Part shown: positions 3,109 to 38,581 of the stretch, piece after piece
Position numbering within the stretch: position 1 is the stretch's first letter
Layout: each line of letters opens with the position of its first letter
From: a virus
DNA: 39,187 nucleotides
Reading direction: 5' to 3' (one strand)
Virus genome (UHGV): UHGV-0864147
The notes under the pieces: model-generated
What the model saw: the letters and a program-made list of their open reading frames with translations, nothing else
Databases searched by the model: none
Told to the model about the DNA's origin: nothing
Position numbers and translations under genes: made by a program

Positions 3109-3947
3109 CACTTCACCTCCTGCGGCGGTTCTGGTAGCGGCATCCAGTGAGTTACGTCATCCAAGATATTTCCTGATAAATACGTGAAAGCTCTATATTT
3201 TTTGTAATCAATTGGATTTACAACCCAGTTCCAATATGCGGCCACGATTTCACCTTGACTAAATGCCAGTAACATTTTGGTGTCTTCCGGCATTCGCTCA
3301 CTACAGCTTATCCAACCATCCGGAGTTACCGGATAGTTGCCATTCACAAGGTCAGCTCGAACATATAGTGTGTCATCATGGTGCTGATTGTGGCTGCACC
3401 ACGTTAATTCGCTTAACTCGCCATCTTCTGGCCATACTCCAGCTGTTTGCAGCCAGATATGGGCTGGCGCATCTTGGCAAGGTGTATTAACTGGCAACTT
3501 GTAAGTTTGGCTTACAGGTTCAGCACCATGAAGCATGGCGTCGCTCCGCTCTATGCCATCCAGCGCGATTCGCAGTGCCTGAATTGTGGTAGAGCTATCG
3601 TTTGGGGCTATTCCATATCGCTCGAATACAGCTAAATGGTTGCGCATAATCTCAGGCGTAAGCTCTTTGTAAGCATAAGCAAGAGGCTCTGATGCATTAT
3701 CCGGCACAACCGACGCAGGCGCGGCAGCATAAACAGGAATAACGTCCGCTTGCTCTTTATTGCTTTCATCCGTTAAAGCCCAGAATAATTTCCCGGCCGG
3801 ATGTTTGAAAATATAAGCAACTGGTTCTGCTTCCAGCGATGCCAGTGCAATTTCATAAGCACGGCGCTCAATATTGTCTCGAACGTCCAAGCTGCCTATG
3901 CGCTCTTTGATTTCTTTAATCAGTTCTTTGTCGGTAAAAGTGGTCAT
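3108..3947 (-). CDS. hypothetical protein with DUF551-like C-terminus (WMPLPEPP)
   Basis: ATG at 3945-3947 preceded by AAGGAG; track gives longer 3108..3989 version. Confidence 0.5.
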   Translation of the reverse strand: MTTFTDKELIKEIKERIGSLDVRDNIERRAYEIALASLEAEPVAYIFKHPAGKLFWALTDESNKEQADVIPVYAAAPASVVPDNASEPLAYAYKELTPEIMRNHLAVFERYGIAPNDSSTTIQALRIALDGIERSDAMLHGAEPVSQTYKLPVNTPCQDAPAHIWLQTAGVWPEDGELSELTWCSHNQHHDDTLYVRADLVNGNYPVTPDGWISCSERMPEDTKMLLAFSQGEIVAAYWNWVVNPIDYKKYRAFTYLSGNILDDVTHWMPLPEPPQEVK

Positions 3948-3948
3948 C

Positions 3949-4506
3949 TCACTCTCCTTTGATGCGAATGCCAGCGGCGCGGGAATCATTCCATCGCTTT
4001 ACTTCTTCACGAATTACGTCAATGCATTCTTTCGAATCCATTAGGTAATCTTCATCAAAAAGACGTTCCTGTTCGTTTTCTATCGCAACAATGATTGCTT
4101 CAACTAATTTTTGTGCCTGAGAATCACTTTCTAACTCTGCTATGCGCTTACTCCCATCCGAGATAACACCTTCGTAATACTCACGCTGCTCGTTAAGTTT
4201 TGATTTTGTCTCCTCAAGCTCTACACGCAGCTTCCCTACCGTTAGCGCAATATCCTCGTTCTCCTGGTCGCGGCGTTTGATGTATTGCTGGTTCCTTTCC
4301 CGTTCATCCAGTAGTGCCAGCACGGTTTCTGGTCCGGCCAGAAATTTGAAGGCGTTGAGCGCATCAATATCCACACCGTAATCTTTAAGTTCTTGTTCAC
4401 TTAACAAATCATCATCAACTGGCAACATTAACAGGCGTTCCATTGCCGGAATTGCACGCTCTGCCGCCTCACGCAGTGCCTGATAGTCAATTGTCATTCT
4501 CGCCAT
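3949..4506 (-). CDS. Ead/Ea22-like coiled-coil protein
   Basis: 185 aa, acidic coiled-coil, N-terminus MARMTIDYQALREAAE resembles Ead/Ea22 family of lambdoid phages (recalled, unverified). Confidence 0.45.
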   Translation of the reverse strand: MARMTIDYQALREAAERAIPAMERLLMLPVDDDLLSEQELKDYGVDIDALNAFKFLAGPETVLALLDERERNQQYIKRRDQENEDIALTVGKLRVELEETKSKLNEQREYYEGVISDGSKRIAELESDSQAQKLVEAIIVAIENEQERLFDEDYLMDSKECIDVIREEVKRWNDSRAAGIRIKGE

Positions 4507-5663: not shown

Positions 5664-6011
5664 TCAGAACTCTTCGATGTTCCAGCCGCCACCTGCTTTC
5701 TTTGGTTTAACCGTTACCCCGATGATTCGGAACGGATACTGATCTGCGGCTACTTTGGTTTTCACCCTGGCGTCGTCGGTCCAGAATCCCCCTTTCACTT
5801 CGTGCAGTTCCATCTCTCCGGTGGCGAGCATCACAGCGAAATCGGGCGTATAGAACGTGTTGTCAGCTAACCGCAGCTTAATACCCTCGAATCGATACCA
5901 GGCGATTTCCCCTGCACGTTTACGCTGCTCAAGGTGCTGGCAATACGCAGATTCTGTTTTGTTCATCTGGCCTGTTTTGAGTCGACCAAGAGCCTGTATC
6001 TGTTTTCTCAT
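5664..6011 (-). CDS. hypothetical protein (DUF1064-like, recalled)
   Basis: 115 aa; start codon 4 bp from TTACC-N5-GGTAA site whose half-site supplies the SD. Confidence 0.45.
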   Translation of the reverse strand: MRKQIQALGRLKTGQMNKTESAYCQHLEQRKRAGEIAWYRFEGIKLRLADNTFYTPDFAVMLATGEMELHEVKGGFWTDDARVKTKVAADQYPFRIIGVTVKPKKAGGGWNIEEF

Positions 6012-6014
6012 GAT

Positions 6015-6091
6015 TTACCTCTAAGGTAATTAAAAACCACATAAGACACGAAATCAATAGATTTTAGAATATTTTATTACCCAACAGGTAA
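6015..6091. promoter_or_regulatory. two TTACC-N5-GGTAA sites (6015-6029, 6077-6091)
   Basis: Perfect inverted repeats in intergenic gap inside replication operon. Confidence 0.45.
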
Positions 6092-6128
6092 TTATCAAGA
6101 CGTAAAAAAATGCGCTATCGCGCTGGTA

Positions 6129-6929
6129 TTACTTGATAAATCCTGCCGCCTTTCCCCGCCTGTATTCCTCCATCAGCCACTGCGCCGGTGTTATTCCCCC
6201 AAGGGTGGCGGCGTTAGGCATGCACCCGAAACTTCGCCCTGGTGGATGGTAAACGTCTCTCCCTGTGTCCGGAGGTGTACTCATGGGCTCTCGCTTTGCC
6301 TGTATGCTGATCACCGGATCGGGTATCTGCTGTCCGGAAGCTACCTTTTTCGCCCAATCATCGAGCAGCCTGCGCGCGTGTTTCTCAACCTCAATCTCGC
6401 TAAGCTGGCGCTGATACATTGCACGGCGGGTATCACATACGACCCAGTACATAACCGGATGTCGCCACGGGAATCTTTCGGGACCACCAGGATATAAACT
6501 TTTTTCCTTGCTGTACCGGTGAAACTCCGCCATCACATCGTCAATGGTGACGCCAAGAACCATCTTGCTGTCTTTACACCACTTGATGAATTGCCCTGGC
6601 GACGGCCAGAACGGAGACTCACTGGCGCGGGCGTGGCGCATACCAGCAGAAACCTGTTCACGGGTTCGGATCCCCCCTTCGGCAAACGCAGCAATCCACT
6701 GCTGTTTTGCAGCAACTTCCTGCTCTGGCGTCTTCAGGTTGGTTACCACTGCCGCCGGAAACAGTTGTTTCAGCTGTTTGAAAAGGGCATCAACAAGCCT
6801 CTCTGCTGACATGTTCACCACGTTGTCATTGTTGGTGTACTGATGCTCATAACCTGACATGCGAGAAAGGGCTTCTCCGTCACGGTTTTGTATCGCGGTA
6901 AAAACGTTGTTCACAAGAAATCCTCCCAT
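6129..6929 (-). CDS. replication protein P-like (DnaB helicase loader)
   Basis: Segment QQWIAAFAEGGIRTREQVSAGMRHARASESPFWPSPGQFIKWCK closely parallels lambda P. Confidence 0.75.
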   Translation of the reverse strand: MGGFLVNNVFTAIQNRDGEALSRMSGYEHQYTNNDNVVNMSAERLVDALFKQLKQLFPAAVVTNLKTPEQEVAAKQQWIAAFAEGGIRTREQVSAGMRHARASESPFWPSPGQFIKWCKDSKMVLGVTIDDVMAEFHRYSKEKSLYPGGPERFPWRHPVMYWVVCDTRRAMYQRQLSEIEVEKHARRLLDDWAKKVASGQQIPDPVISIQAKREPMSTPPDTGRDVYHPPGRSFGCMPNAATLGGITPAQWLMEEYRRGKAAGFIK

Positions 6930-7726
6930 GCTTCAGGGCTGTTCCAGTGCGGAACGTTGTTATCAGGTAATGTTGATTGCTTCTGTCTGCTAATCTGCAG
7001 CCGCCTTGCCAGCTTCTGCTCCCACTGTGCCTGATGGTATGCCTTACCCTCAGCCATCCAGTAAATTCTGAACTCTGCAAGTTCCTGTGCCGTTGGCAGA
7101 CTGTCCAGGTAGATCCCCTGCAATGAGCTTTTCCGAAGAAAGTCATCTGATGGCTGCCATTGTTCATGCATGACAAATTTGCCTAATTGCCCTGGCCCAC
7201 CAGGAGGAACAAAGTTATTCATCACGGCGTTGTTTGCGCCGGGGTCATGATGCACAGAATCCCCGTTTTTTGTCCTGCTCTCCCTCTCTTGGTTAAATGA
7301 CTGGTTATATGACTGGTTCTGGATCCCGTTTTTGGGATCATTCAACATCCCGTTTTTGGGATCATTCAACATCCCGTTTTTGGGTATATTCCCGTTTTCG
7401 GTAACATTACCGTTTTCGGGTTCATTGCCCCCCTCTCGGTTGCCTTTAATGTTCCCGTTTTTGGTTATATTAAGAGAGAAAACCCGCACTCTTTTTGTCG
7501 CTCCCTTTCTCTCTCCGGTATCTGAAATAAGCCCCATTTTCATGAGCGATATAAGCCCGGCCTGCACGGTTTTTTTATTCAGGCAAGTGTCTTTAACGAG
7601 GCGTTCTATGCTGGGGTAGCAGAGGTTATATTCATCGGCTCTGTCAGCCATCGAGAGCAGTATGAGCTTTAATGATGAGCTACCTGGATCTGTCTCCCAG
7701 GCCCAATCTGTTGCATGTCTGCTCAT
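6911..7726 (-). CDS. replication initiator (O-like, N-terminal winged HTH) with internal Asn/Gly-rich repeat
   Basis: N-terminal HTH-like region, repeated NGN/KNGMLNDP peptide encoded by tandem DNA repeats, gene overlaps P-like gene. Confidence 0.65.
   Translation of the reverse strand: MSRHATDWAWETDPGSSSLKLILLSMADRADEYNLCYPSIERLVKDTCLNKKTVQAGLISLMKMGLISDTGERKGATKRVRVFSLNITKNGNIKGNREGGNEPENGNVTENGNIPKNGMLNDPKNGMLNDPKNGIQNQSYNQSFNQERESRTKNGDSVHHDPGANNAVMNNFVPPGGPGQLGKFVMHEQWQPSDDFLRKSSLQGIYLDSLPTAQELAEFRIYWMAEGKAYHQAQWEQKLARRLQISRQKQSTLPDNNVPHWNSPEAWEDFL
7325..7474. repeat. iteron-like tandem repeats (putative ori) inside O-like gene
   Basis: Exact 24-bp tandem duplication at 7325-7348 and 7349-7372 plus four further CCCGTTTTYGG copies. 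Confidence 0.5.
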
Positions 7727-8348: not shown

Positions 8349-8377
8349 ATAATAAATATTCACCCATAAGGTAACAA
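8349..8377 (-). promoter_or_regulatory. PR-like promoter for Cro-like gene
   Basis: Minus-strand -35 TTGTTA and -10 TATTAT with 17-bp spacer, overlapped by operator site. Confidence 0.4.
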
Positions 8378-8477: not shown

Positions 8478-9062
8478 ATGAAAAGTATCCAGGACGTCCG
8501 CAGGCAAAATCTCAACGACTTGATCGACCGTGAATTCAATGGTGTTCAGACGCGGATGGCAGAAAAACTTGGAACTCAGGCAAATCTGGTAAACCGCTGG
8601 GCTCTTGGCAAGAAGGTTATCGGCGACCAGGTTGCGCGAAAAATTGAAGCTGCCGCCAATAAACCCCGTAACTGGCTTGATATCGATCGCTCGCTTTCTC
8701 AGGAAGGTTTTCAGCCTGTCGGCCCAAGCGACATTGGTCAGCTGGCGGCTCACAACCTGGAACGCTGGATGAGCGAAAGCCGCGACCTTTCAACACAGGG
8801 AAAACTTCACCGCGCATCCGGCGTCGCCCAGGTGACAATCAGCCGCCTGTTAAACAATGAGGTCAGCGTTTCCATTTCCACCCTGGAGAATGTTGCATCC
8901 GCATTCGGGCGTCACGGCTATGAATTACTGATTCACCCGCACGACCCTGCGACCATCAACTATGACCGCTCGCGCTACGCATTGTTACCCGAAACCGAGA
9001 AAGCAAAGATCGAAAGTTACATTGAATTTGTCATCAACCAGAACGAAAAAAACAAACAATAA
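8478..9062 (+). CDS. prophage repressor, two HTH domains, no S24 peptidase domain
   Basis: 194 aa; two XRE-like HTH segments; located at cI position; followed by strong terminator. Confidence 0.55.
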   Translation: MKSIQDVRRQNLNDLIDREFNGVQTRMAEKLGTQANLVNRWALGKKVIGDQVARKIEAAANKPRNWLDIDRSLSQEGFQPVGPSDIGQLAAHNLERWMSESRDLSTQGKLHRASGVAQVTISRLLNNEVSVSISTLENVASAFGRHGYELLIHPHDPATINYDRSRYALLPETEKAKIESYIEFVINQNEKNKQ

Positions 9063-16503: not shown

Positions 16504-19110
16504 TTATTTCCTGCAAACTCCAGATGATGTTAATCCATCAAAAATAACCTGCACTCTGGCAATAACAACATCAACTCCAGAAGTCGTTTCACTTGCATAA
16601 CCAAGTTTTATTTTAGATACAATATCCTGAGTAAGTTCAGATATTTCAGTTTCTGCAATGTTACCAGAGGCCATGTGATTATCGTATGCCATAGAATGAA
16701 TTCCATTATTGACATCGATTGAACTAGTATGTTTGTGAAAAATAGATGGGTTTACCTGAAACGAATTTGAACCGATAAGATCAGAAGATACTCCATTCAT
16801 CACTGCAGTACAGCGTGGAATATTATTATCGGTTATTGTCATATGCAGACGGTTACCAGTTAACCCCTCACCAAGTGTGACATAATACGCCAATTCTCCA
16901 CCTGCATATTGTTTCCCCTCAACAATAACAGTAATCCCTCTTAATTTCTGATTAGCTAGCAAAAACTTATTACTGTCTATATAGCATTTATTTGCGGAAC
17001 CAAAAACAGCCCCTTCTAAAATATCTGATGAATAGGAATAAATAAGGTCACCTGAAACAAAGGAAAGAATATCAGATACGTTTCCTTTTTTAGATAAGTT
17101 GGGAGAATAGCTATTAACTATTTCATATTGTCCTGTGATAAAATCAAGGTAAACGCCATCAGTTTTCATCTCTTTAAAGAAAATGCTATTAAAGCATCCA
17201 TCAAGAACCGGTGGATATATTCTAGAGCTTGCATAAGCTGTTGGGTGATTCTTATTATTACCACTACCAGGCGAATAAACATCTTCGTTAGTCATTGACT
17301 TTTTAAGCTTAACAGGAATCATCGGCTGCATATCAATTTTGCAGTTCCCTGAACCACCGATGCGAGGATAAAATAAACCACCAAACCTTACAATATTACT
17401 ACTGAATAGTATTTCGTTATCGTTAAGTGTTATCTCAACGAAGTTTCCAATAAGTTTAAATTCAACTGAAAACAAACCAAGTGGAGCAGATAATTTAACA
17501 ATATTGCGCATAAAAACACCTACAGTCCCTGTTGATGCAGTATAGTGTGTGGTTTCAAAGGCAGAGCCTGTATATTTCAAGTTAATGAAATTATTATGGT
17601 ATGAAGACAATTGGAATTGAATCCCAGAACTAAGGATTTCAATATCTACAAATTGAATCCTTACGGAGTAAGAATATGATAAATCTTCATATTCATAAGG
17701 CAATGTAACATCTTTTGAAATAGTTGCCCTCACATAATTACCAGAAACCACATCAACCCCATCACGTACTGCATTAAAGTAACGATTAAAATCAATAAGC
17801 CCAGCGCCAACATACTGCGCATATGAACGAGTCCATCCTGCCATTGCGTTTCGTCCATTCTGAGCTTCTAAACTGCTAAATTCAGAGTCACTTGTGGTAC
17901 TTGATGGGAGGATATTTGTACAAAAAACAATTTCAGGCATTGAAGTAATATCATTCAGTTCAGCCATCAATTTAAAAAAAGTTTTCTGCGGGAAGTTACC
18001 AACATCCCAACCATCTCCGTCATTCATGCCAAAAGCAATAATAACAACATCAGGGTTAATATCACGAATGTAATCAATCCAGCGTCTGTTCGTGTCTGAA
18101 TACCATGGGTACTGTGAGTTATAAGAAGTAATTGCTGGTGTATCTTTTCCAAGGTCATAGTACCTCATTCCACCAATTGCTCTGTTAAATAAAGTAGAAC
18201 TTGGGAATTTCTCTTGCAAAACTCTCTTAAGATGAGCGGCAAAAATGCTTGATCGATCCACTGTGCTTATATTATATGGGGCACTTAAGCTGTCACCAAC
18301 TAACACTATTTTTGAGTTAGGCCTTGATAATCTCTCAAGTGTTTTAGATGTGACTAAACTGCAGGAATTAATGAACTGAGTACTATTTAGCGTCTGTTCA
18401 AGTGTATCACCAAATCTGGTACCAACGTATGATGATCCGTTGACACTTGCTAGCTTAAGGCATAAATCAGCAGTATCTGTAATTGAAAAAATAGGAACAG
18501 GACGTCCTAAACTGTCATACCCCTGAATTGAGTTTGCCCTAGAAGATGCTGATGCCATTTCGCTTACTATCTCAGGGAAGCGGAGTGTTTTAGATATGTT
18601 GCTGTTAATAACTCCTTTGATAGATGAGTCTGTATATTTCTTCGTGGAAGCGTCCTGAGGAAATAATGGATCATCAAGGTTACGAATACGATTGCCGAGT
18701 GCATCGTAGTAAGTGGCACTAAATGATGGTTTACGAAGAGCCAGCCGAGCCATGCTTTTGACTAACTGGATCAGCATCGTTAGCTTATCAAAAGCATCCT
18801 CATGCACTTCCGCAAAGAACTTACCCTGATTGCGCAGATCAGTTTCCTGTGTAACCGGTAGCTCTCGTGATATAGAAATCTTATAGCCATTGGCCAACGC
18901 CTTCGACAATATTACATTTCCACCATTGTATCCTCCGGCCCCGGTAACTATATAATCAGTATCAAGAGTCAGTACGGTGATATTTTCATGAATATCAACA
19001 ACCTGCACAATCAAATCAGATTTATTGAAAACCCTAAAGGCATACGGAAACGATGTCGTAACGCCGTTACCGGTGTATTCGTTGTGGTCAACTTCGGTTG
19101 AGACCGTCAT
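16504..19110 (-). CDS. tailspike: T7 gp17-like N-terminal adaptor domain plus SGNH/GDSL hydrolase domain
   Basis: 868 aa; N-terminus YTGNGVTTSFPY pattern; internal VLVGDSLSA (block I) and FGMNDG (block III) SGNH motifs; AT-rich. Confidence 0.75.
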   Translation of the reverse strand: MTVSTEVDHNEYTGNGVTTSFPYAFRVFNKSDLIVQVVDIHENITVLTLDTDYIVTGAGGYNGGNVILSKALANGYKISISRELPVTQETDLRNQGKFFAEVHEDAFDKLTMLIQLVKSMARLALRKPSFSATYYDALGNRIRNLDDPLFPQDASTKKYTDSSIKGVINSNISKTLRFPEIVSEMASASSRANSIQGYDSLGRPVPIFSITDTADLCLKLASVNGSSYVGTRFGDTLEQTLNSTQFINSCSLVTSKTLERLSRPNSKIVLVGDSLSAPYNISTVDRSSIFAAHLKRVLQEKFPSSTLFNRAIGGMRYYDLGKDTPAITSYNSQYPWYSDTNRRWIDYIRDINPDVVIIAFGMNDGDGWDVGNFPQKTFFKLMAELNDITSMPEIVFCTNILPSSTTSDSEFSSLEAQNGRNAMAGWTRSYAQYVGAGLIDFNRYFNAVRDGVDVVSGNYVRATISKDVTLPYEYEDLSYSYSVRIQFVDIEILSSGIQFQLSSYHNNFINLKYTGSAFETTHYTASTGTVGVFMRNIVKLSAPLGLFSVEFKLIGNFVEITLNDNEILFSSNIVRFGGLFYPRIGGSGNCKIDMQPMIPVKLKKSMTNEDVYSPGSGNNKNHPTAYASSRIYPPVLDGCFNSIFFKEMKTDGVYLDFITGQYEIVNSYSPNLSKKGNVSDILSFVSGDLIYSYSSDILEGAVFGSANKCYIDSNKFLLANQKLRGITVIVEGKQYAGGELAYYVTLGEGLTGNRLHMTITDNNIPRCTAVMNGVSSDLIGSNSFQVNPSIFHKHTSSIDVNNGIHSMAYDNHMASGNIAETEISELTQDIVSKIKLGYASETTSGVDVVIARVQVIFDGLTSSGVCRK

Positions 19111-19214: not shown

Positions 19215-19229
19215 TTACCTTTATGGTAA
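19215..19229. promoter_or_regulatory. TTACC-N5-GGTAA site upstream of LexA box
   Basis: Perfect arms; 38 bp upstream of LexA box. Confidence 0.45.
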
Positions 19230-19266: not shown

Positions 19267-19286
19267 TACTGTATAAATATACAGTT
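19267..19286 (+). promoter_or_regulatory. LexA (SOS) box
   Basis: TACTGTATAAATATACAGTT, i.e. CTGT-N8-ACAG with AT-rich spacer, 2 mismatches to the 20-mer consensus; 20 bp upstream of ATG 19306. Confidence 0.7.
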
Positions 19287-19305
19287 ATTGCATGGAGAAG
19301 ATAAG

Positions 19306-19563
19306 ATGCAGCGGTATCACTATCCACTGGAAGACGGATTTACCGAAAGGATTCACACGCCGGGAGGCGTCAGGTCACTGGTGGAGGGATCGCACTTGAT
19401 GAAATTACTCCGGGATCTCGATAAGGATGGATTTAATGTCGATGGCCCACTTGCCGAACTGACTGCACTGATTAACTACGTCACCAGCTCACAGATGTCT
19501 ATGCGGGATCTGCAAACACATCTCGACTATTGTGCCGAACAATTACGAAAACAAACCAGATAA
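19306..19563 (+). CDS. small protein paralogous to antirepressor C-terminal domain; LexA-regulated
   Basis: ATG 19306 with GGAG upstream; about 45 percent identity to Ant C-terminus by eye; LexA box upstream. Confidence 0.5.
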   Translation: MQRYHYPLEDGFTERIHTPGGVRSLVEGSHLMKLLRDLDKDGFNVDGPLAELTALINYVTSSQMSMRDLQTHLDYCAEQLRKQTR

Positions 19564-19566
19564 GGT

Positions 19567-19609
19567 TTGCAATTACCAAGTGGAGTGCTTATATTTACCT
19601 TTGAGGTAA
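19567..19609 (+). promoter_or_regulatory. promoter-like element (-35 TTGCAA, -10 TATATT) with TTACC-N5-GGTAA site 19595-19609
   Basis: 17-bp spacer; perfect operator-like repeat overlapping -10/+1. Confidence 0.4.
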
Positions 19610-19877
19610 ATTTACATCGCACTCCTCTTGTGCCATAGTAATCGGGCACTGGCAAAATCCAGTGCCGGGATTGGTCTCCCGGATTACTACAGAGGCACAT
19701 ATGCCGCATAAGCGGTTTTTTTTATGTGTAAAGCGCACCTATTCTATGGTGGGCTGTGTGGGGGCACCGAAAGGTGCGCCGGGTTCCTTTGTAGCCGGTA
19801 AGACCAACTCTGCACAGTTCACCACCATCTGATTGGTCTCAGCGGTGGTGATTAACCTAACTACAAAGGTGATCGCC
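19610..19877 (+). ncRNA. structured leader / candidate regulatory RNA upstream of ant
   Basis: Hairpins at 19646-19665, 19665-19682, 19704-19715 plus U8, 19764-19777 (GAAA loop), 19819-19851; CCTTTGTAG (19786-19794) complementary to ant SD region (19861-19869). Confidence 0.3.
19704..19723 (+). terminator. weak terminator/attenuator in ant leader
   Basis: CCGC ATAA GCGG followed by eight T. Confidence 0.35.
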
Positions 19878-20570
19878 ATGAATACCAAACCTTCCATCTT
19901 TTCCTTTGAGTCATCCTGCCAGATCCGTATGTTCATGATTGACGGAGAACCTTGGTTTGTCACCAAAGATGTGTGCAATGCTTTGAATATTGATGTTACA
20001 CAAGCGAGAAAACTTGATAAAAAAGGCTGGAACAAAAAGGGGCTGTATTCAATACAGACCCCTGGTGGAATACAAGAACTATCCATCGTTTCAGAATCAG
20101 GTCTCTACATCCTTATTCTGCGTTGCAAAGAGGCAATGACTGAGGGAACGAGAGCATTCAGATTTCTTGAATGGGTTACAGGCGAGGTTCTTCCTCAGAT
20201 CCGCCGCACCGGAAGTTACATTAAAAACTCGCTACCGCAGGAAGAACGCATAAAGATGGTTGCCGACCAGGTAGCCAACGCCACGGCGTCAGCAGTAATG
20301 CAGGCGATGAAGATAGAGAACAAAACCTACAACGCCCCGCTGAAGCCCGGCTACCGCAGCCTGATTCATTCCCCGTCTGGTGTTCTCGGCCTGACGGAGA
20401 ACTCACTGCTGATGAATCTGCTGAACCAGTTACAGGAAGACGGGCACGACGTATCGGGCGCGGCGGCGGAGCTGACCACCATGTTCTGCTACATCGTCGG
20501 TGTGAGCAAATGCCTGCGTGATATCCAGACGCACGCGGAGTACATCAACGACAAGGCTGGGTTCTTCTGA
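19878..20570 (+). CDS. ant: antirepressor (Bro-N N-terminal domain)
   Basis: FSFESSCQIRMFMIDGEPWFVTKDVCNALNI and GLYILILRC / VLPQIRRTGSY Bro-N signatures. Confidence 0.8.
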   Translation: MNTKPSIFSFESSCQIRMFMIDGEPWFVTKDVCNALNIDVTQARKLDKKGWNKKGLYSIQTPGGIQELSIVSESGLYILILRCKEAMTEGTRAFRFLEWVTGEVLPQIRRTGSYIKNSLPQEERIKMVADQVANATASAVMQAMKIENKTYNAPLKPGYRSLIHSPSGVLGLTENSLLMNLLNQLQEDGHDVSGAAAELTTMFCYIVGVSKCLRDIQTHAEYINDKAGFF

Positions 20571-20779: not shown

Positions 20780-21319
20780 GTGTTAAGTGAAGAAATGCAA
20801 TTTGCCATGGCTGTGGCTCAAATCGTAAGTGCAGTCGCGGTTTCGCTTGGCTTGTTCATAGCTATCGCTACTATTATTTATAATGTAAATACAGCGAGAA
20901 AAGTACACACTTCAGTATTCCTTGGTGAAAGCAGGTTTGATGTAGATTATAAGAAAGGCCTATCTACTATGCGCCGCATTCACGAATCGAACAAATCATT
21001 CCGCTCTTATATGTATCCAAGCAATGGGCAGGCTGATCTTACGGATGAAGAAAAGACAGAGAAGAGAGAAATAATTTACTGTCTAGGTTTCTACGAACGC
21101 ATGGCTGTGAGCGTGAAGCGGAAAACTTATGATGAGACCATGATTAAGGAAGTATTTTACAGCTCCGTTGTAAATAACTATCAGATTGCGCTACCTCTTA
21201 TACAAGCCATTAGAGAAAAAGAAAACATAAACACATATTTTAAAGAATATGAATGGTTGGCCACACGATGGAAGGATTGCCCATTGAAGGATAAATCCCC
21301 GTGGTACAAGTTTTGGTAA
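20780..21319 (+). CDS. AT-rich moron: single-pass membrane protein of unknown function
   Basis: 179 aa; N-terminal TM helix; own promoter-like region and terminators on both sides. Confidence 0.5.
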   Translation: MLSEEMQFAMAVAQIVSAVAVSLGLFIAIATIIYNVNTARKVHTSVFLGESRFDVDYKKGLSTMRRIHESNKSFRSYMYPSNGQADLTDEEKTEKREIIYCLGFYERMAVSVKRKTYDETMIKEVFYSSVVNNYQIALPLIQAIREKENINTYFKEYEWLATRWKDCPLKDKSPWYKFW

Positions 21320-21598: not shown

Positions 21599-21610
21599 GT
21601 GACATGTCAC
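21599..21610. repeat. 12-bp perfect palindrome GTGACATGTCAC (copy 2)
   Basis: Identical to copy at 2647-2658; overlaps a minus-strand stop codon and abuts terminator hairpin. Confidence 0.6.
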
Positions 21611-21903
21611 GTCCCTTTTCTGAATGATAGCCATTCGAAAAATGATGACATTCCACCGCAGACAACAGCAAAGATGATCCCACCAAAGAAGAGAATGCCA
21701 GCCTGCCACCACTCCCACCGCCATACATCCACAGCGCCAACCATACCAACAATCGCTCCAACAAATGGAATATAGCTCACGATGAAAGCAATGGGGGCTG
21801 CAATTATCCAGTGCAATCCCCACCATGATTCAAGCCCAGCCATAATTGCTGCCAACTGAAAAAGACCAACGACGATATAAACAATGAATCCTATAGCTTG
21901 CAT
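21607..21903 (-). CDS. small integral membrane protein
   Basis: 98 aa, 3 hydrophobic segments, AGGTGG upstream of ATG. Confidence 0.45.
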   Translation of the reverse strand: MQAIGFIVYIVVGLFQLAAIMAGLESWWGLHWIIAAPIAFIVSYIPFVGAIVGMVGAVDVWRWEWWQAGILFFGGIIFAVVCGGMSSFFEWLSFRKGT

Positions 21904-22098: not shown

Positions 22099-24573
22099 TT
22101 ATTGCGGAGTGACATCCTGAGGTCGCCACCAGTATGTCTGGTTAAACTCTTTCTTCGAACGTTGCTCCATTTTACGCAAATAACCTGGTGAAAAATACTC
22201 CTGCATCTGGTTAAAGATCATGTGATCGAGAGCCGCCTTTAAGTACCAGAGATTCGCACCTGGCATCAGACCTTTCCCCAGCTTGACCAGATCACCACCA
22301 GTCTGCTCATTCTTCCCTTCCACAGCATTTAACGGTATGCCCTGAGCAATCTTCACTACGTCATCAACCAGACCAGCTACCGGGCCAAGCATCGACGCCA
22401 GCGCGCCGCTTCCGTACCTAGTGTGATCTGACAATAAAAAGTCACCGTAAAGGCCAAGACCACCACCTTTCAGTAGAGCACCAAGCCAAAATTTAGCAGC
22501 ATCTTCTCCTGTCATCTCACGAGGATTACGACCAGACGCAAGGTCGTTAAGTTGCTGCGACAAAGCGCCAAGAATGGTCGTACTGGCAATAAACGTCGCA
22601 ATATATGCCGCACGCCCACCAGCAGACGGCATACCCATAGCGCGTGACCAGTGACGCATAACCACCGAGATAGGGAACGATTTAAACAGGAAAACACTTC
22701 TCGTTAATTCACCTTTCCATGTTCCACGCTGAATACCAGAACCGGTTATCAGTTGCTCACGTGCTCCCGGTGTAATAACAGCCATATCAACTTCTTCAGT
22801 TACGGCACCGAGCAGTTTACGCATTGCCTCAAATTTCACGCGTTCAGGCTCACCAAGATGTTTAACTGCTGAATCAGGGATACGCATAATGCTTTCCGGT
22901 GTCAGCATCGTATTATTACCGTTCCCCCAGTCCTCCTGTTGCGCCAGCTTCCATACGCTCCAGTCTGTGTCAGTAATTCCTTTGCTTTTCAGGATACGAA
23001 AATCAGAGTCATCGAGGCTACGAAGGTCTGGTGTCCGTGACACTACTTCTCCCAGGCTTCCCATCATGGTTACGCCATAGGCGCGCTTGTGCGCATCTGA
23101 CCATGCTGTAAGCCCACTGGCACGCATTACCGCCGTTGCCGCCCAGCGAGACACTGACGGCCCCATATTATCCATCGCCCAGCGGTTAACGCTGCCAAGT
23201 AGAGATTCCATCGCCAGACCAGCGCGGCGCGCCCGCGCAAGTTCTGTACGGTTCGTTGGGTCCATAGCTTCAAGCTGGTTGCGGAATAACTGGTTCATTG
23301 GAAGGTTGGTAACCTTCGCAGACAGATACATGGTTCCAAGATCAGAGAACGATGACAGCAACGCGGATCCGAGTCTGCTGGCAACCAGCCAGTTGCGGAT
23401 ATTGTCAGACCATCGCGCGATGTGCGGATTTGCTACAGGCTGTGTCTTTCCGGAAATAAAGTTGTACAGATTCTCTGTGTTGTTCGCCAGCCGCTCGACT
23501 TTACCGGTTTTACTCGGGTTAGCTGTTGCCGTTTCTGCCTTCACCTGATCAAGAAGAGAGCGGAAAACATGATCTGGGTTTGGGCCATATGTTTCCACCA
23601 GTGCAATATCTTTACTGATACCTTCCAGGTGACCGACCATGATTTCCCATAGAGAGCGATCGCCATAAAGTTGCTGATATTGCAGATAGGAATCTGCATC
23701 TTTGAAATGTATCTGTCGTGATGCATTACCACGGTTAGCACGTGCGCCGGAAATTCGCATTCCGGTATCAGTAAGCTTATTCAGCCCACCAGTAGCGATC
23801 GTGTTATAAGCCTCTCCAAGAAATGCAGACAACTCGGCATCGTTCATCAGTTGTCCATCGGCTCGGATATAATATTTGCGATCCAGCTTACCTATAACAT
23901 CGCTAACCCACTTATCCTTTGATACCGCCCCAACCTTTTCCATAGAATGATGTTGAGGGATCCCCCAGTTTTCGAGATAGCCAATGTCCCCGCCAGCATC
24001 ATTAAACCGGCGGCGCAGTAGATCTGTCACTTCTCTCCACGCCTTAGCACCTTTTCTTGCTTTAGCATTGCCAGTATTTTGTCCTCGCATTTCATATACC
24101 AGGTCACGCACGCCAGCTTCATCTTCAAACAGGCCAAAAAAGCGAGGATCAACTGCTTCAAATGCCTCCTGCAATTGACTCAATGCATAATCACGAGTGG
24201 CTTTTGTTCTGGACTCAACAGAGAGGAAATTCGATTTACCGTCTGCATTAAAAGCAATAGTACGGTTAAGAGCGCCAAGTTTCCCATCAGCCCCTTGATA
24301 GCTATTGATAAATTTATCCAATCTCTGACGTGCGGCTATAGTGAGGGCCACACGACGTTTCTTTAATGCCGCTTCTCGCTGTAATTCTTCAGATGCCAAT
24401 TGTGCTGCTCGATATAGCCGCTCTGATTCGGAAAGTTGTCTCCACGACATCGGGTCATCACGAGCAATGGAGCGCATATTTCGATAAATGCGGTCTTCAA
24501 TGTTCTGTATTTCTCGCGCCGTTAACGTGCGCTGCGCCGCCTGCTGAACCGCTTGTATACATTCCTGTCTCAT
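22099..24573 (-). CDS. large virion protein (internal/ejection protein candidate)
   Basis: 824 aa in structural operon. Confidence 0.5.
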   Translation of the reverse strand: MRQECIQAVQQAAQRTLTAREIQNIEDRIYRNMRSIARDDPMSWRQLSESERLYRAAQLASEELQREAALKKRRVALTIAARQRLDKFINSYQGADGKLGALNRTIAFNADGKSNFLSVESRTKATRDYALSQLQEAFEAVDPRFFGLFEDEAGVRDLVYEMRGQNTGNAKARKGAKAWREVTDLLRRRFNDAGGDIGYLENWGIPQHHSMEKVGAVSKDKWVSDVIGKLDRKYYIRADGQLMNDAELSAFLGEAYNTIATGGLNKLTDTGMRISGARANRGNASRQIHFKDADSYLQYQQLYGDRSLWEIMVGHLEGISKDIALVETYGPNPDHVFRSLLDQVKAETATANPSKTGKVERLANNTENLYNFISGKTQPVANPHIARWSDNIRNWLVASRLGSALLSSFSDLGTMYLSAKVTNLPMNQLFRNQLEAMDPTNRTELARARRAGLAMESLLGSVNRWAMDNMGPSVSRWAATAVMRASGLTAWSDAHKRAYGVTMMGSLGEVVSRTPDLRSLDDSDFRILKSKGITDTDWSVWKLAQQEDWGNGNNTMLTPESIMRIPDSAVKHLGEPERVKFEAMRKLLGAVTEEVDMAVITPGAREQLITGSGIQRGTWKGELTRSVFLFKSFPISVVMRHWSRAMGMPSAGGRAAYIATFIASTTILGALSQQLNDLASGRNPREMTGEDAAKFWLGALLKGGGLGLYGDFLLSDHTRYGSGALASMLGPVAGLVDDVVKIAQGIPLNAVEGKNEQTGGDLVKLGKGLMPGANLWYLKAALDHMIFNQMQEYFSPGYLRKMEQRSKKEFNQTYWWRPQDVTPQ

Positions 24574-38504: not shown

Positions 38505-38581
38505 GTGGCATTAGCTCAGTTGGACAGAGCAACCGCCTTCTAAGCGGTTGGTCGCAGGTTCGAATCCTGCATGCCACGCCA
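38505..38581 (+). tRNA. tRNA-Arg (anticodon UCU)
   Basis: 77 nt cloverleaf: acceptor GTGGCAT/ATGCCAC, D-arm GCTC..GAGC, anticodon stem ACCGC/GCGGT with loop CTTCTAA, T-arm GCAGG TTCGAAT CCTGC, encoded CCA. Confidence 0.85.

Follow-up and report, generated by a model that had tools for sequence, protein, structure and literature searches.

The window analysed here, a stretch of 39,187 nucleotides, is a phiV10/epsilon15-like temperate podophage (Uetakevirus). Its antirepressor locus consists of a small gene, ant, and a gene encoding a larger Bro-N protein located 315 bp downstream, with two RNA elements and several putative control sites around and between them. The features of this locus and the repressor gene rep are the following:

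8478–9062, + strand: rep, encoding a 194-aa HTH repressor with homology to SPC32H Rep, the presumed target of both antirepressors
19215–19229, no strand assigned: palindrome TTACCTTTATGGTAA of the TTACC-N5-GGTAA family, a candidate Rep operator upstream of the ant promoter
19267–19286, + strand: LexA (SOS) box TACTGTATAAATATACAGTT, with an exact CTGT-N8-ACAG core at 19269–19284, 21 bp before the ATG
19306–19563, + strand: ant, encoding an 85-aa stand-alone antirepressor, ortholog of SPC32H Ant (87% identity, 5D50_E, phrog_450)
19595–19609, no strand assigned: palindrome TTACCTTTGAGGTAA of the TTACC-N5-GGTAA family, abutting the promoter-like site before isrK
19611–19639, + strand: sigma-70-like promoter (TTTACA-17-CATAGT with TG), a consensus match only, ending 7 nt before the isrK match and so placed that transcripts would begin at isrK
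19646–19722, + strand: isrK-type sRNA (RF01394, full length, 74.7 bits against a gathering score of 50)
19742–19829, + strand: C4-type antisense RNA (RF01695, full length, 78.6 bits against a gathering score of 45)
19861–19869, + strand: putative C4-loop target CTACAAAGG, complementary to the C4 loop and overlapping the Bro-N Shine-Dalgarno AAGGTG
19878–20570, + strand: gene for the Bro-N::Ant-like antirepressor, 230 aa from ATG 19878 (Bro-N PF02498, phrog_130, ZX5 ORF4)
20322–20543, + strand: Ant-like C-terminal domain of the Bro-N protein (residues 149–222), a paralog of the small ORF (BLASTP, 5D50_E)

The ant gene adjoins the tailspike gene in divergent orientation, in the same position as in SPC32H. 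The tailspike (16504–19110, − strand) features a conserved epsilon15-type N-terminus and, in its translation, a 'VLVGDSLS' stretch that recalls SGNH/GDSL esterases and would be consistent with an O-antigen deacetylase. Two cargo genes, encoding a DUF4760 protein (phrog_2284, 20780–21319, + strand) and a 98-aa membrane protein (phrog_3075, 21607–21903, − strand), lie between the Bro-N gene and the gene for an 824-aa protein (22099–24573) whose counterpart in phiV10 carries the annotation 'virion structural protein'; SPC32H has neither cargo gene at this position. PADLOC returned no defence match among the ORFs scanned, including the DUF4760 gene. A tRNA gene is found at 38505–38578 (+ strand; Rfam RF00005, 73.3 bits), and the SPC32H genome also has a tRNA-Arg.

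The ant reading frame starts with ATG 19306, 8 nt behind a Shine-Dalgarno GGAG at 19294–19297, and ends with the stop codon TAA at 19561–19563, giving a product of 85 aa instead of the 86 aa named in the original prediction. By tblastn against phage genomes this product was found to be 87% identical to the annotated 'ant: anti-repressor protein' of SPC32H and SPC32N, while a PDB sequence search returned a single match, chain E of 5D50 ('Anti-repressor protein'), with E=3.5e-46 over residues 2–84. The 35 phage records with tblastn matches to the small ORF are all epsilon15/phiV10-like podophages (Uetakevirus), whose hosts are Escherichia, Salmonella, Enterobacter and Klebsiella. The small ORF showed neither a Bro-N domain nor any Pfam family at gathering score. 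Its dN/dS is approximately 0.06 against both SPC32H and Tyrion at dS values above 1, which argues for a translated and constrained gene. Judged by its sequence, the small ORF is no unknown protein; it is the E. coli-phage version of Ant from Salmonella phage SPC32H, a known antirepressor of similar length (86 aa). SPC32H Ant is described to be produced after LexA self-cleavage and to inhibit the lytic repressor via protein–protein interaction (Kim & Ryu 2013, J Virol 87:11775, as cited in PMC7380047), and it is said to form a tetramer, with the structure of the Rep–Ant complex available as 5D50 (Kim et al. 2016, PNAS 113:E2480, as summarised in PMC9638917).

In phiV10, TL-2011b and ZX5 the small ant is still labelled 'hypothetical protein'. 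In Enterobacter phage Tyrion it is annotated from an internal methionine (165-nt CDS); the full 86-aa ORF at 994–1254 of the extracted Tyrion locus (L006) starts behind a LexA box at 955–973. Matches to the ant locus are present in 542 of 5426 complete E. coli RefSeq genomes (about 10%). The annotation of the gene that follows the small ant varies in E. coli between BRO-N, 'phage antirepressor Ant' and AntA/AntB. In the 12 E. coli records listed, the feature beside this Bro-N/Ant/AntA gene is labelled 'hypothetical protein' and presumably represents the small ant.

Upstream of ant, the sequence TACTGTATAAATATACAGT at 19267–19285 contains the LexA core CTGT-N8-ACAG, and the complete box matches the E. 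coli consensus TACTGTATATATATACAGTA at 18 of 20 positions. This core occurs three times in the window, with an AT-rich spacer only in the copy in front of ant. The extended motif TACTGT-N8-ACAGT is present upstream of the small gene in six loci (L001–L006) and occurs once each in SPC32H, phiV10, TL-2011b, ZX5 and Tyrion; the Klebsiella relative carries a one-mismatch version. Although the surrounding spacer has diverged, the box is kept in SPC32H and phiV10. A sigma-70 promoter scan gave no −35/−10 pair at the ant promoter under the thresholds used. With a near-consensus box that is conserved upstream of orthologous genes, the LexA control originally proposed for the small ORF very likely holds.

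The resident Rep aligns with SPC32H Rep over its full length (42% identity, E=2e-53) and matches 5D50_A (4e-42) as well as 5D4Z_A (4e-20), while its Pfam matches comprise HTH families only, with no S24 peptidase domain. Within the phage collection, all 35 records that contain the Ant domain also have a Rep homolog, and 35 of the 36 records with a full-length Rep have Ant. The window thereby shares with SPC32H not only the orthologous ant with its divergent tailspike neighbour, but also the LexA box before it and a non-cleavable Rep homolog in the genome. Of the alternatives offered in the original prediction, the first, by which the LexA-controlled free domain acts as the antirepressor in its own right, is supported by the SPC32H Ant orthology, the 5D50_E match and the presence of this Rep homolog. 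The window phage differs from SPC32H in being phiV10-type with E. coli as host, in the moderate identity of its Rep, and in an isrK–C4–Bro-N::Ant-like cassette that its locus has gained and SPC32H does not possess. The divergence from SPC32H is discordant, as Ant is 87% identical and Rep only 42%, so that binding of the window Ant to the window Rep is an extrapolation. This discordance suggests recognition of a conserved Rep surface, a broad cross-reactivity of Ant as observed for Gifsy antirepressors, or a modular exchange of tailspike and ant.

The palindrome TTACC-N5-GGTAA occurs, with at most one mismatch, at 16 sites in the window against 0.85 expected, with the following starts of the 15-mers:

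2536, 2554, 5062, 6015, 6077, 8360, 8408, 9120
9182, 14264, 16190, 19215, 19595, 20636, 38168, 38785

Two of them, at 8360 and 8408, are found immediately before rep in the divergent interval, one site precedes each antirepressor unit, and two pairs, 6015/6077 and 9120/9182, are spaced exactly 62 bp apart. SPC32H has 18 such sites, including three between rep and the next gene and two 62-bp pairs, and the palindrome upstream of ant is kept in SPC32H (at 20013), in phiV10 and in the Klebsiella prophage. We infer that TTACC-N5-GGTAA is a candidate operator of Rep. If so, ant would be under the control of Rep as well as LexA, which would result in positive feedback on induction.

The larger protein encoded downstream of ant matches the Bro-N family PF02498 over residues 16–106 (1.6e-13) and phrog_130, 'anti-repressor Ant'; an in-frame TTG at 19833 would lengthen it to 245 aa. 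A pairwise BLASTP alignment of the small product with this protein yielded 32 identities over 74 positions (43%) without gaps at E=8e-17, covering residues 149–222 of the Bro-N protein, and contains the strings LMKLLRDLDKDGFNVDGPLAELT/LMNLLNQLQEDGHDVSGAAAELT and MRDLQTH/LRDIQTH on which the by-eye comparison had been based. A profile check with phrog_450 (88 positions) gave matches for both proteins, at 1.2e-47 for the small and 3.1e-37 for the Bro-N protein, and the PDB chain 5D50_E is likewise matched by both (3.5e-46 and 4.9e-14, respectively). Given this identity and E-value and the common phrog_450 match, the paralogy predicted by eye, at approximately 45% over the last ~70 residues, was correct and goes far beyond chance. 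Members of the fused subfamily are 37–42% identical to the small Ant, and the fused Ant-like domain is under purifying selection with dN/dS values of 0.06–0.31. A Rep-binding domain common to two antirepressors under different inputs is apparently undescribed in the accessible literature and represents a modest addition.

The predicted layout of the Bro-N protein is a Bro-N domain, a largely helical linker modelled at low confidence, and the Ant-like domain. Its AlphaFold model has a mean pLDDT of 61, with values of 54–68 in the C-terminal domain. Foldseek with this model placed 5D50_H at rank 9 (E=0.08, TM 0.75 normalised to the target, 38% identity), which is weakly supportive considering the low-confidence model.

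Between ant and the Bro-N gene, the isrK-type sRNA ends in an intrinsic terminator with a stem at 19703–19716 followed by a T run, while no terminator was found between the ant stop codon and isrK. The C4 loop CCUUUGUAG (19786–19794) can form nine consecutive Watson–Crick pairs with CUACAAAGG (19861–19869), and isrK itself carries a near-copy of this C4 target at 19687–19695, CTACAGAGG (CUACAGAGG). In isrK/C4 modules such as Gifsy-1 isrK-orf45-anrP and P1 immI, a short upstream ORF (orf45 or icd) is translationally coupled to the antirepressor gene. The window has an ORF at 19662–19832 (43 aa if started at ATG 19701), the end of which lies 45 nt ahead of ATG 19878 and directly abuts the in-frame TTG at 19833. 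Both RNAs are found in the same place in phiV10, TL-2011b, ZX5, Tyrion and the Klebsiella prophage, and they are absent from SPC32H. With matching sequences in 224 phage records, the isrK/C4 module is a widespread one.

This neighbouring riboregulated module is of a known type. As in isrK-orf45-anrP of Gifsy-1 and c4-icd-ant of the P1/P7 immI regions, a C4-type RNA is followed by an antirepressor gene with a complementary ribosome-binding site, and the C4 region of the window is the equivalent of the 'orf45' region in Gifsy-1 and of c4 in P1. In Gifsy-1, an isrK with a leaky terminator precedes the C4-type RNA, the same order as in the window, and read-through of this terminator results in an isrK-orf45-anrP mRNA that is not translated until IsrK has acted on it in trans (PMC4825925, Hershko-Shalev et al. 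2016). The encoded proteins differ, since Gifsy-1 AnrP is of the ORF6N type and has no similarity to the window Bro-N protein. Gifsy-1 also possesses a separate small LexA-controlled antirepressor, GfoA, and the Gifsy antirepressors cross-react (PMC3121763). We took the ORF after the Gifsy-1 dinI homolog as the presumed GfoA, its identity being deduced from the operon order given in PMC3121763. Neither AnrP nor the small Ant of the window resembles it, and the window small Ant gave no alignment with it at E<=100. A general rule by which a LexA-controlled small antirepressor would be a free copy of the tail of an RNA-controlled antirepressor was considered and rejected, as presumed GfoA and AnrP of Gifsy-1 align only at E=8.2; the antirepressors of Gifsy-1 have no detectable common domain, unlike the pair in the window.

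With its own promoter-like site, an isrK with a terminator and a C4 antisense RNA in front of it, the Bro-N gene is not simply LexA-controlled. A reading in which the downstream Bro-N 'Ant' is the principal antirepressor and is under LexA is not supported by this arrangement, nor by the Salmonella relatives, which lack a Bro-N gene and need only the small Ant for induction.

The function of the Bro-N protein can be approached through phage vB_EcoP_ZX5, whose ORF4 is 80% identical to it. The last ~110 residues of the two proteins are the same except for N150S, while the N-terminal Bro-N part is only ~70% identical, revealing a mosaic. The ZX5 Rep is 100% identical to the window Rep, and a small ant and isrK/C4 are likewise located upstream. 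Overexpression of GST-tagged ZX5 ORF4 was described to reduce lysogens 1000-fold from 1e9 to 1e6 PFU/mL and repressor transcripts by 75% (PMC9782041); the article mentions neither the small ant, which is annotated as hypothetical in ZX5, nor SPC32H or the common domain. In the phiV10 reference genome (NC_007804, positions 3727–4406 of locus L002) the Bro-N gene is frameshifted inside the Ant-like domain after '...SLLMN', and its annotation is split into a 194-aa protein and a 29-aa ORF, whereas the window copy is intact. The frameshift indicates that the large protein is dispensable, at least for phiV10.

On these grounds we consider it likely, with a probability of roughly 80%, that ant encodes an SOS-triggered antirepressor of the non-cleavable Rep and that the Bro-N::Ant-like protein is a second, IsrK/C4-gated antirepressor of the same Rep. 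One could also imagine that the small protein is a modulator, the second alternative of the original prediction, and that it forms mixed oligomers with the Ant-like tail, whereby SOS-made Ant would switch the Bro-N antirepressor on or off or direct it to another target, and would not act on Rep by itself. The common domain with its 43% identity would allow for this, as would the tetrameric state described for the SPC32H ortholog in the summary of PMC9638917 and the arrangement of the two adjacent genes in the same orientation with no terminator from the ant stop to isrK. However, the fused copy is missing from SPC32H, epsilon15 and ten further Salmonella phage records that possess the small Ant, and in Salmonella phages Ant alone is reported, in the summaries cited above, to inactivate Rep. 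As the fused copy of phiV10 is moreover frameshifted and the conservation of an oligomer interface is uncertain at 43% identity, we regard a purely modulatory role as distinctly unlikely.

It is somewhat easier to conceive, yet still unlikely, that only the small Ant handles the resident Rep, while the Bro-N protein is aimed at the Reps of co-resident or superinfecting epsilon15-like prophages, in a cross-talk or anti-immunity function as known from P22 Ant and Gifsy. The two subfamilies are clearly diverged at 37–42% identity, the regulatory context is immI-like, the phiV10 gene is annotated 'putative anti-immunity protein', and cross-reacting antirepressors are documented for Gifsy phages (PMC3121763). 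On the other hand, ZX5 ORF4 acted on ZX5 itself, the Rep of which is identical to that of the window, and the divergence of the fused domain roughly parallels that of the resident Rep, with 77% versus 78% identity for Tyrion and 52% versus 45% for Klebsiella. The view of the Bro-N::Ant-like protein as a second route to the same Rep is supported by homology, co-occurrence and the ZX5 overexpression data.

The Ant-like domain belongs to a small family that is covered by no Pfam or NCBIfam model; a HMMER search with a 13-sequence profile against 1.84 billion representatives retrieved only 64 clusters at E<=1e-3. The named homologs in the other searches are all enterobacterial, except for one 978-bp contig labelled Staphylococcus aureus. 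In fused proteins the domain is always C-terminal, with Bro-N, AntA, Phage_pRha and ORF6N as partners. A further arrangement is found in TL-2011b, where gp42 (NC_019445, positions 5952–7136 of locus L004) consists of P22_AR_N, its sole Pfam match, followed by an Ant-like C-terminus with 43% identity to the small Ant. An arc-like gene and a sar antisense RNA detected by Rfam lie in front of the gp42 gene, so that TL-2011b has three Ant-like copies under three kinds of control. The module resembles the P22 immI region (arc-ant-sar) in its arc-like gene, sar RNA and P22_AR_N protein and can be described as immI-type with a swapped C-terminal domain; the window has no such third module. A 95-aa 'stand-alone' member of the fused subfamily from Raoultella (P0130, the one checked) was rejected as a free copy, as its reading frame extends upstream through what is left of a truncated Bro-N domain, and isrK/C4 are missing.

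The variety of partners fits the domain shuffling that Iyer, Koonin and Aravind reportedly described in 2002 for Bro-N, KilA-N, Rha and ORF6N proteins, with the addition that the C-terminal module has a crystallised, repressor-bound homolog in this case. The same variety bears on the idea that the Ant-like tail is a mere oligomerisation module of a DNA-binding Bro-N regulator that is no antirepressor of Rep. The N-terminal part of the model resembles, with weak E-values, a Ski/Dachshund domain, the N-domain of CpGV Orf22 and Mbp1, which may point to DNA binding, and the function of the Bro-N domain is described as unsettled (PMC9782041). Still, the tail is attached to five unrelated antirepressor-type N-domains (Bro-N, AntA, Rha, ORF6N and P22_AR_N), occurs in the phage collection only in genomes with a Rep homolog, and ZX5 ORF4 overexpression shifted the phage away from lysogeny, which together make this idea very improbable.

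Taken together, our preferred model of two antirepressors acting on one repressor would operate as follows. Lysogeny would be held by the non-cleavable HTH repressor Rep, while LexA would occupy the near-consensus box over the ant promoter. DNA damage would remove LexA and allow production of the 85-aa Ant, which, by homology to its SPC32H counterpart, would tetramerise, bind Rep dimers and break up the DNA-binding Rep tetramer, leading to prophage induction. This sequence of events, from LexA cleavage via Ant to the broken Rep tetramer and induction, is well supported by orthology. The Bro-N protein would serve as the second antirepressor, with the Ant-type domain as a C-terminal 'warhead' behind Bro-N. 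Pairing of the C4 loop with the Bro-N Shine-Dalgarno would keep this second route to Rep gated by IsrK and C4, a mechanism that we transfer to the window locus by analogy to Gifsy-1 and P1. We infer that both Ant and the Bro-N protein bind the window Rep, whereby two proteins with one repressor-binding domain would feed two different signals into one Rep switch.

As a more speculative extension, which we consider possible rather than probable, the Ant fold may be a portable Rep-specific 'warhead' that epsilon15-like phages use two or three times, namely as a free protein controlled by LexA, fused to Bro-N or AntA in genes governed by IsrK/C4, and, in TL-2011b, fused to P22_AR_N with Arc/Sar as controllers. 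As there is no terminator between ant and isrK, transcripts made from ant during the SOS response may include IsrK, and such RNA may then unlock Bro-N translation in a feed-forward manner, while the different copies may also co-assemble as mixed tetramers. If this were true, one repressor would integrate several independent signals.

The findings do not overturn the present understanding and are mostly known biology. Their practical use lies in correcting the widespread annotation of the small ant as 'hypothetical protein', as this gene is the likely SOS trigger of the prophages that match the locus in about one tenth of the complete E. coli genomes. They also provide a handle on the role of the variable C-terminal parts in Bro-N, AntA, Rha, ORF6N and P22-type 'antirepressors'. 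As the C-terminal part is homologous to a domain with a repressor-bound crystal structure, specificity, residing in the C-terminal part, and the generic function of the N-terminal part would become experimentally separable.
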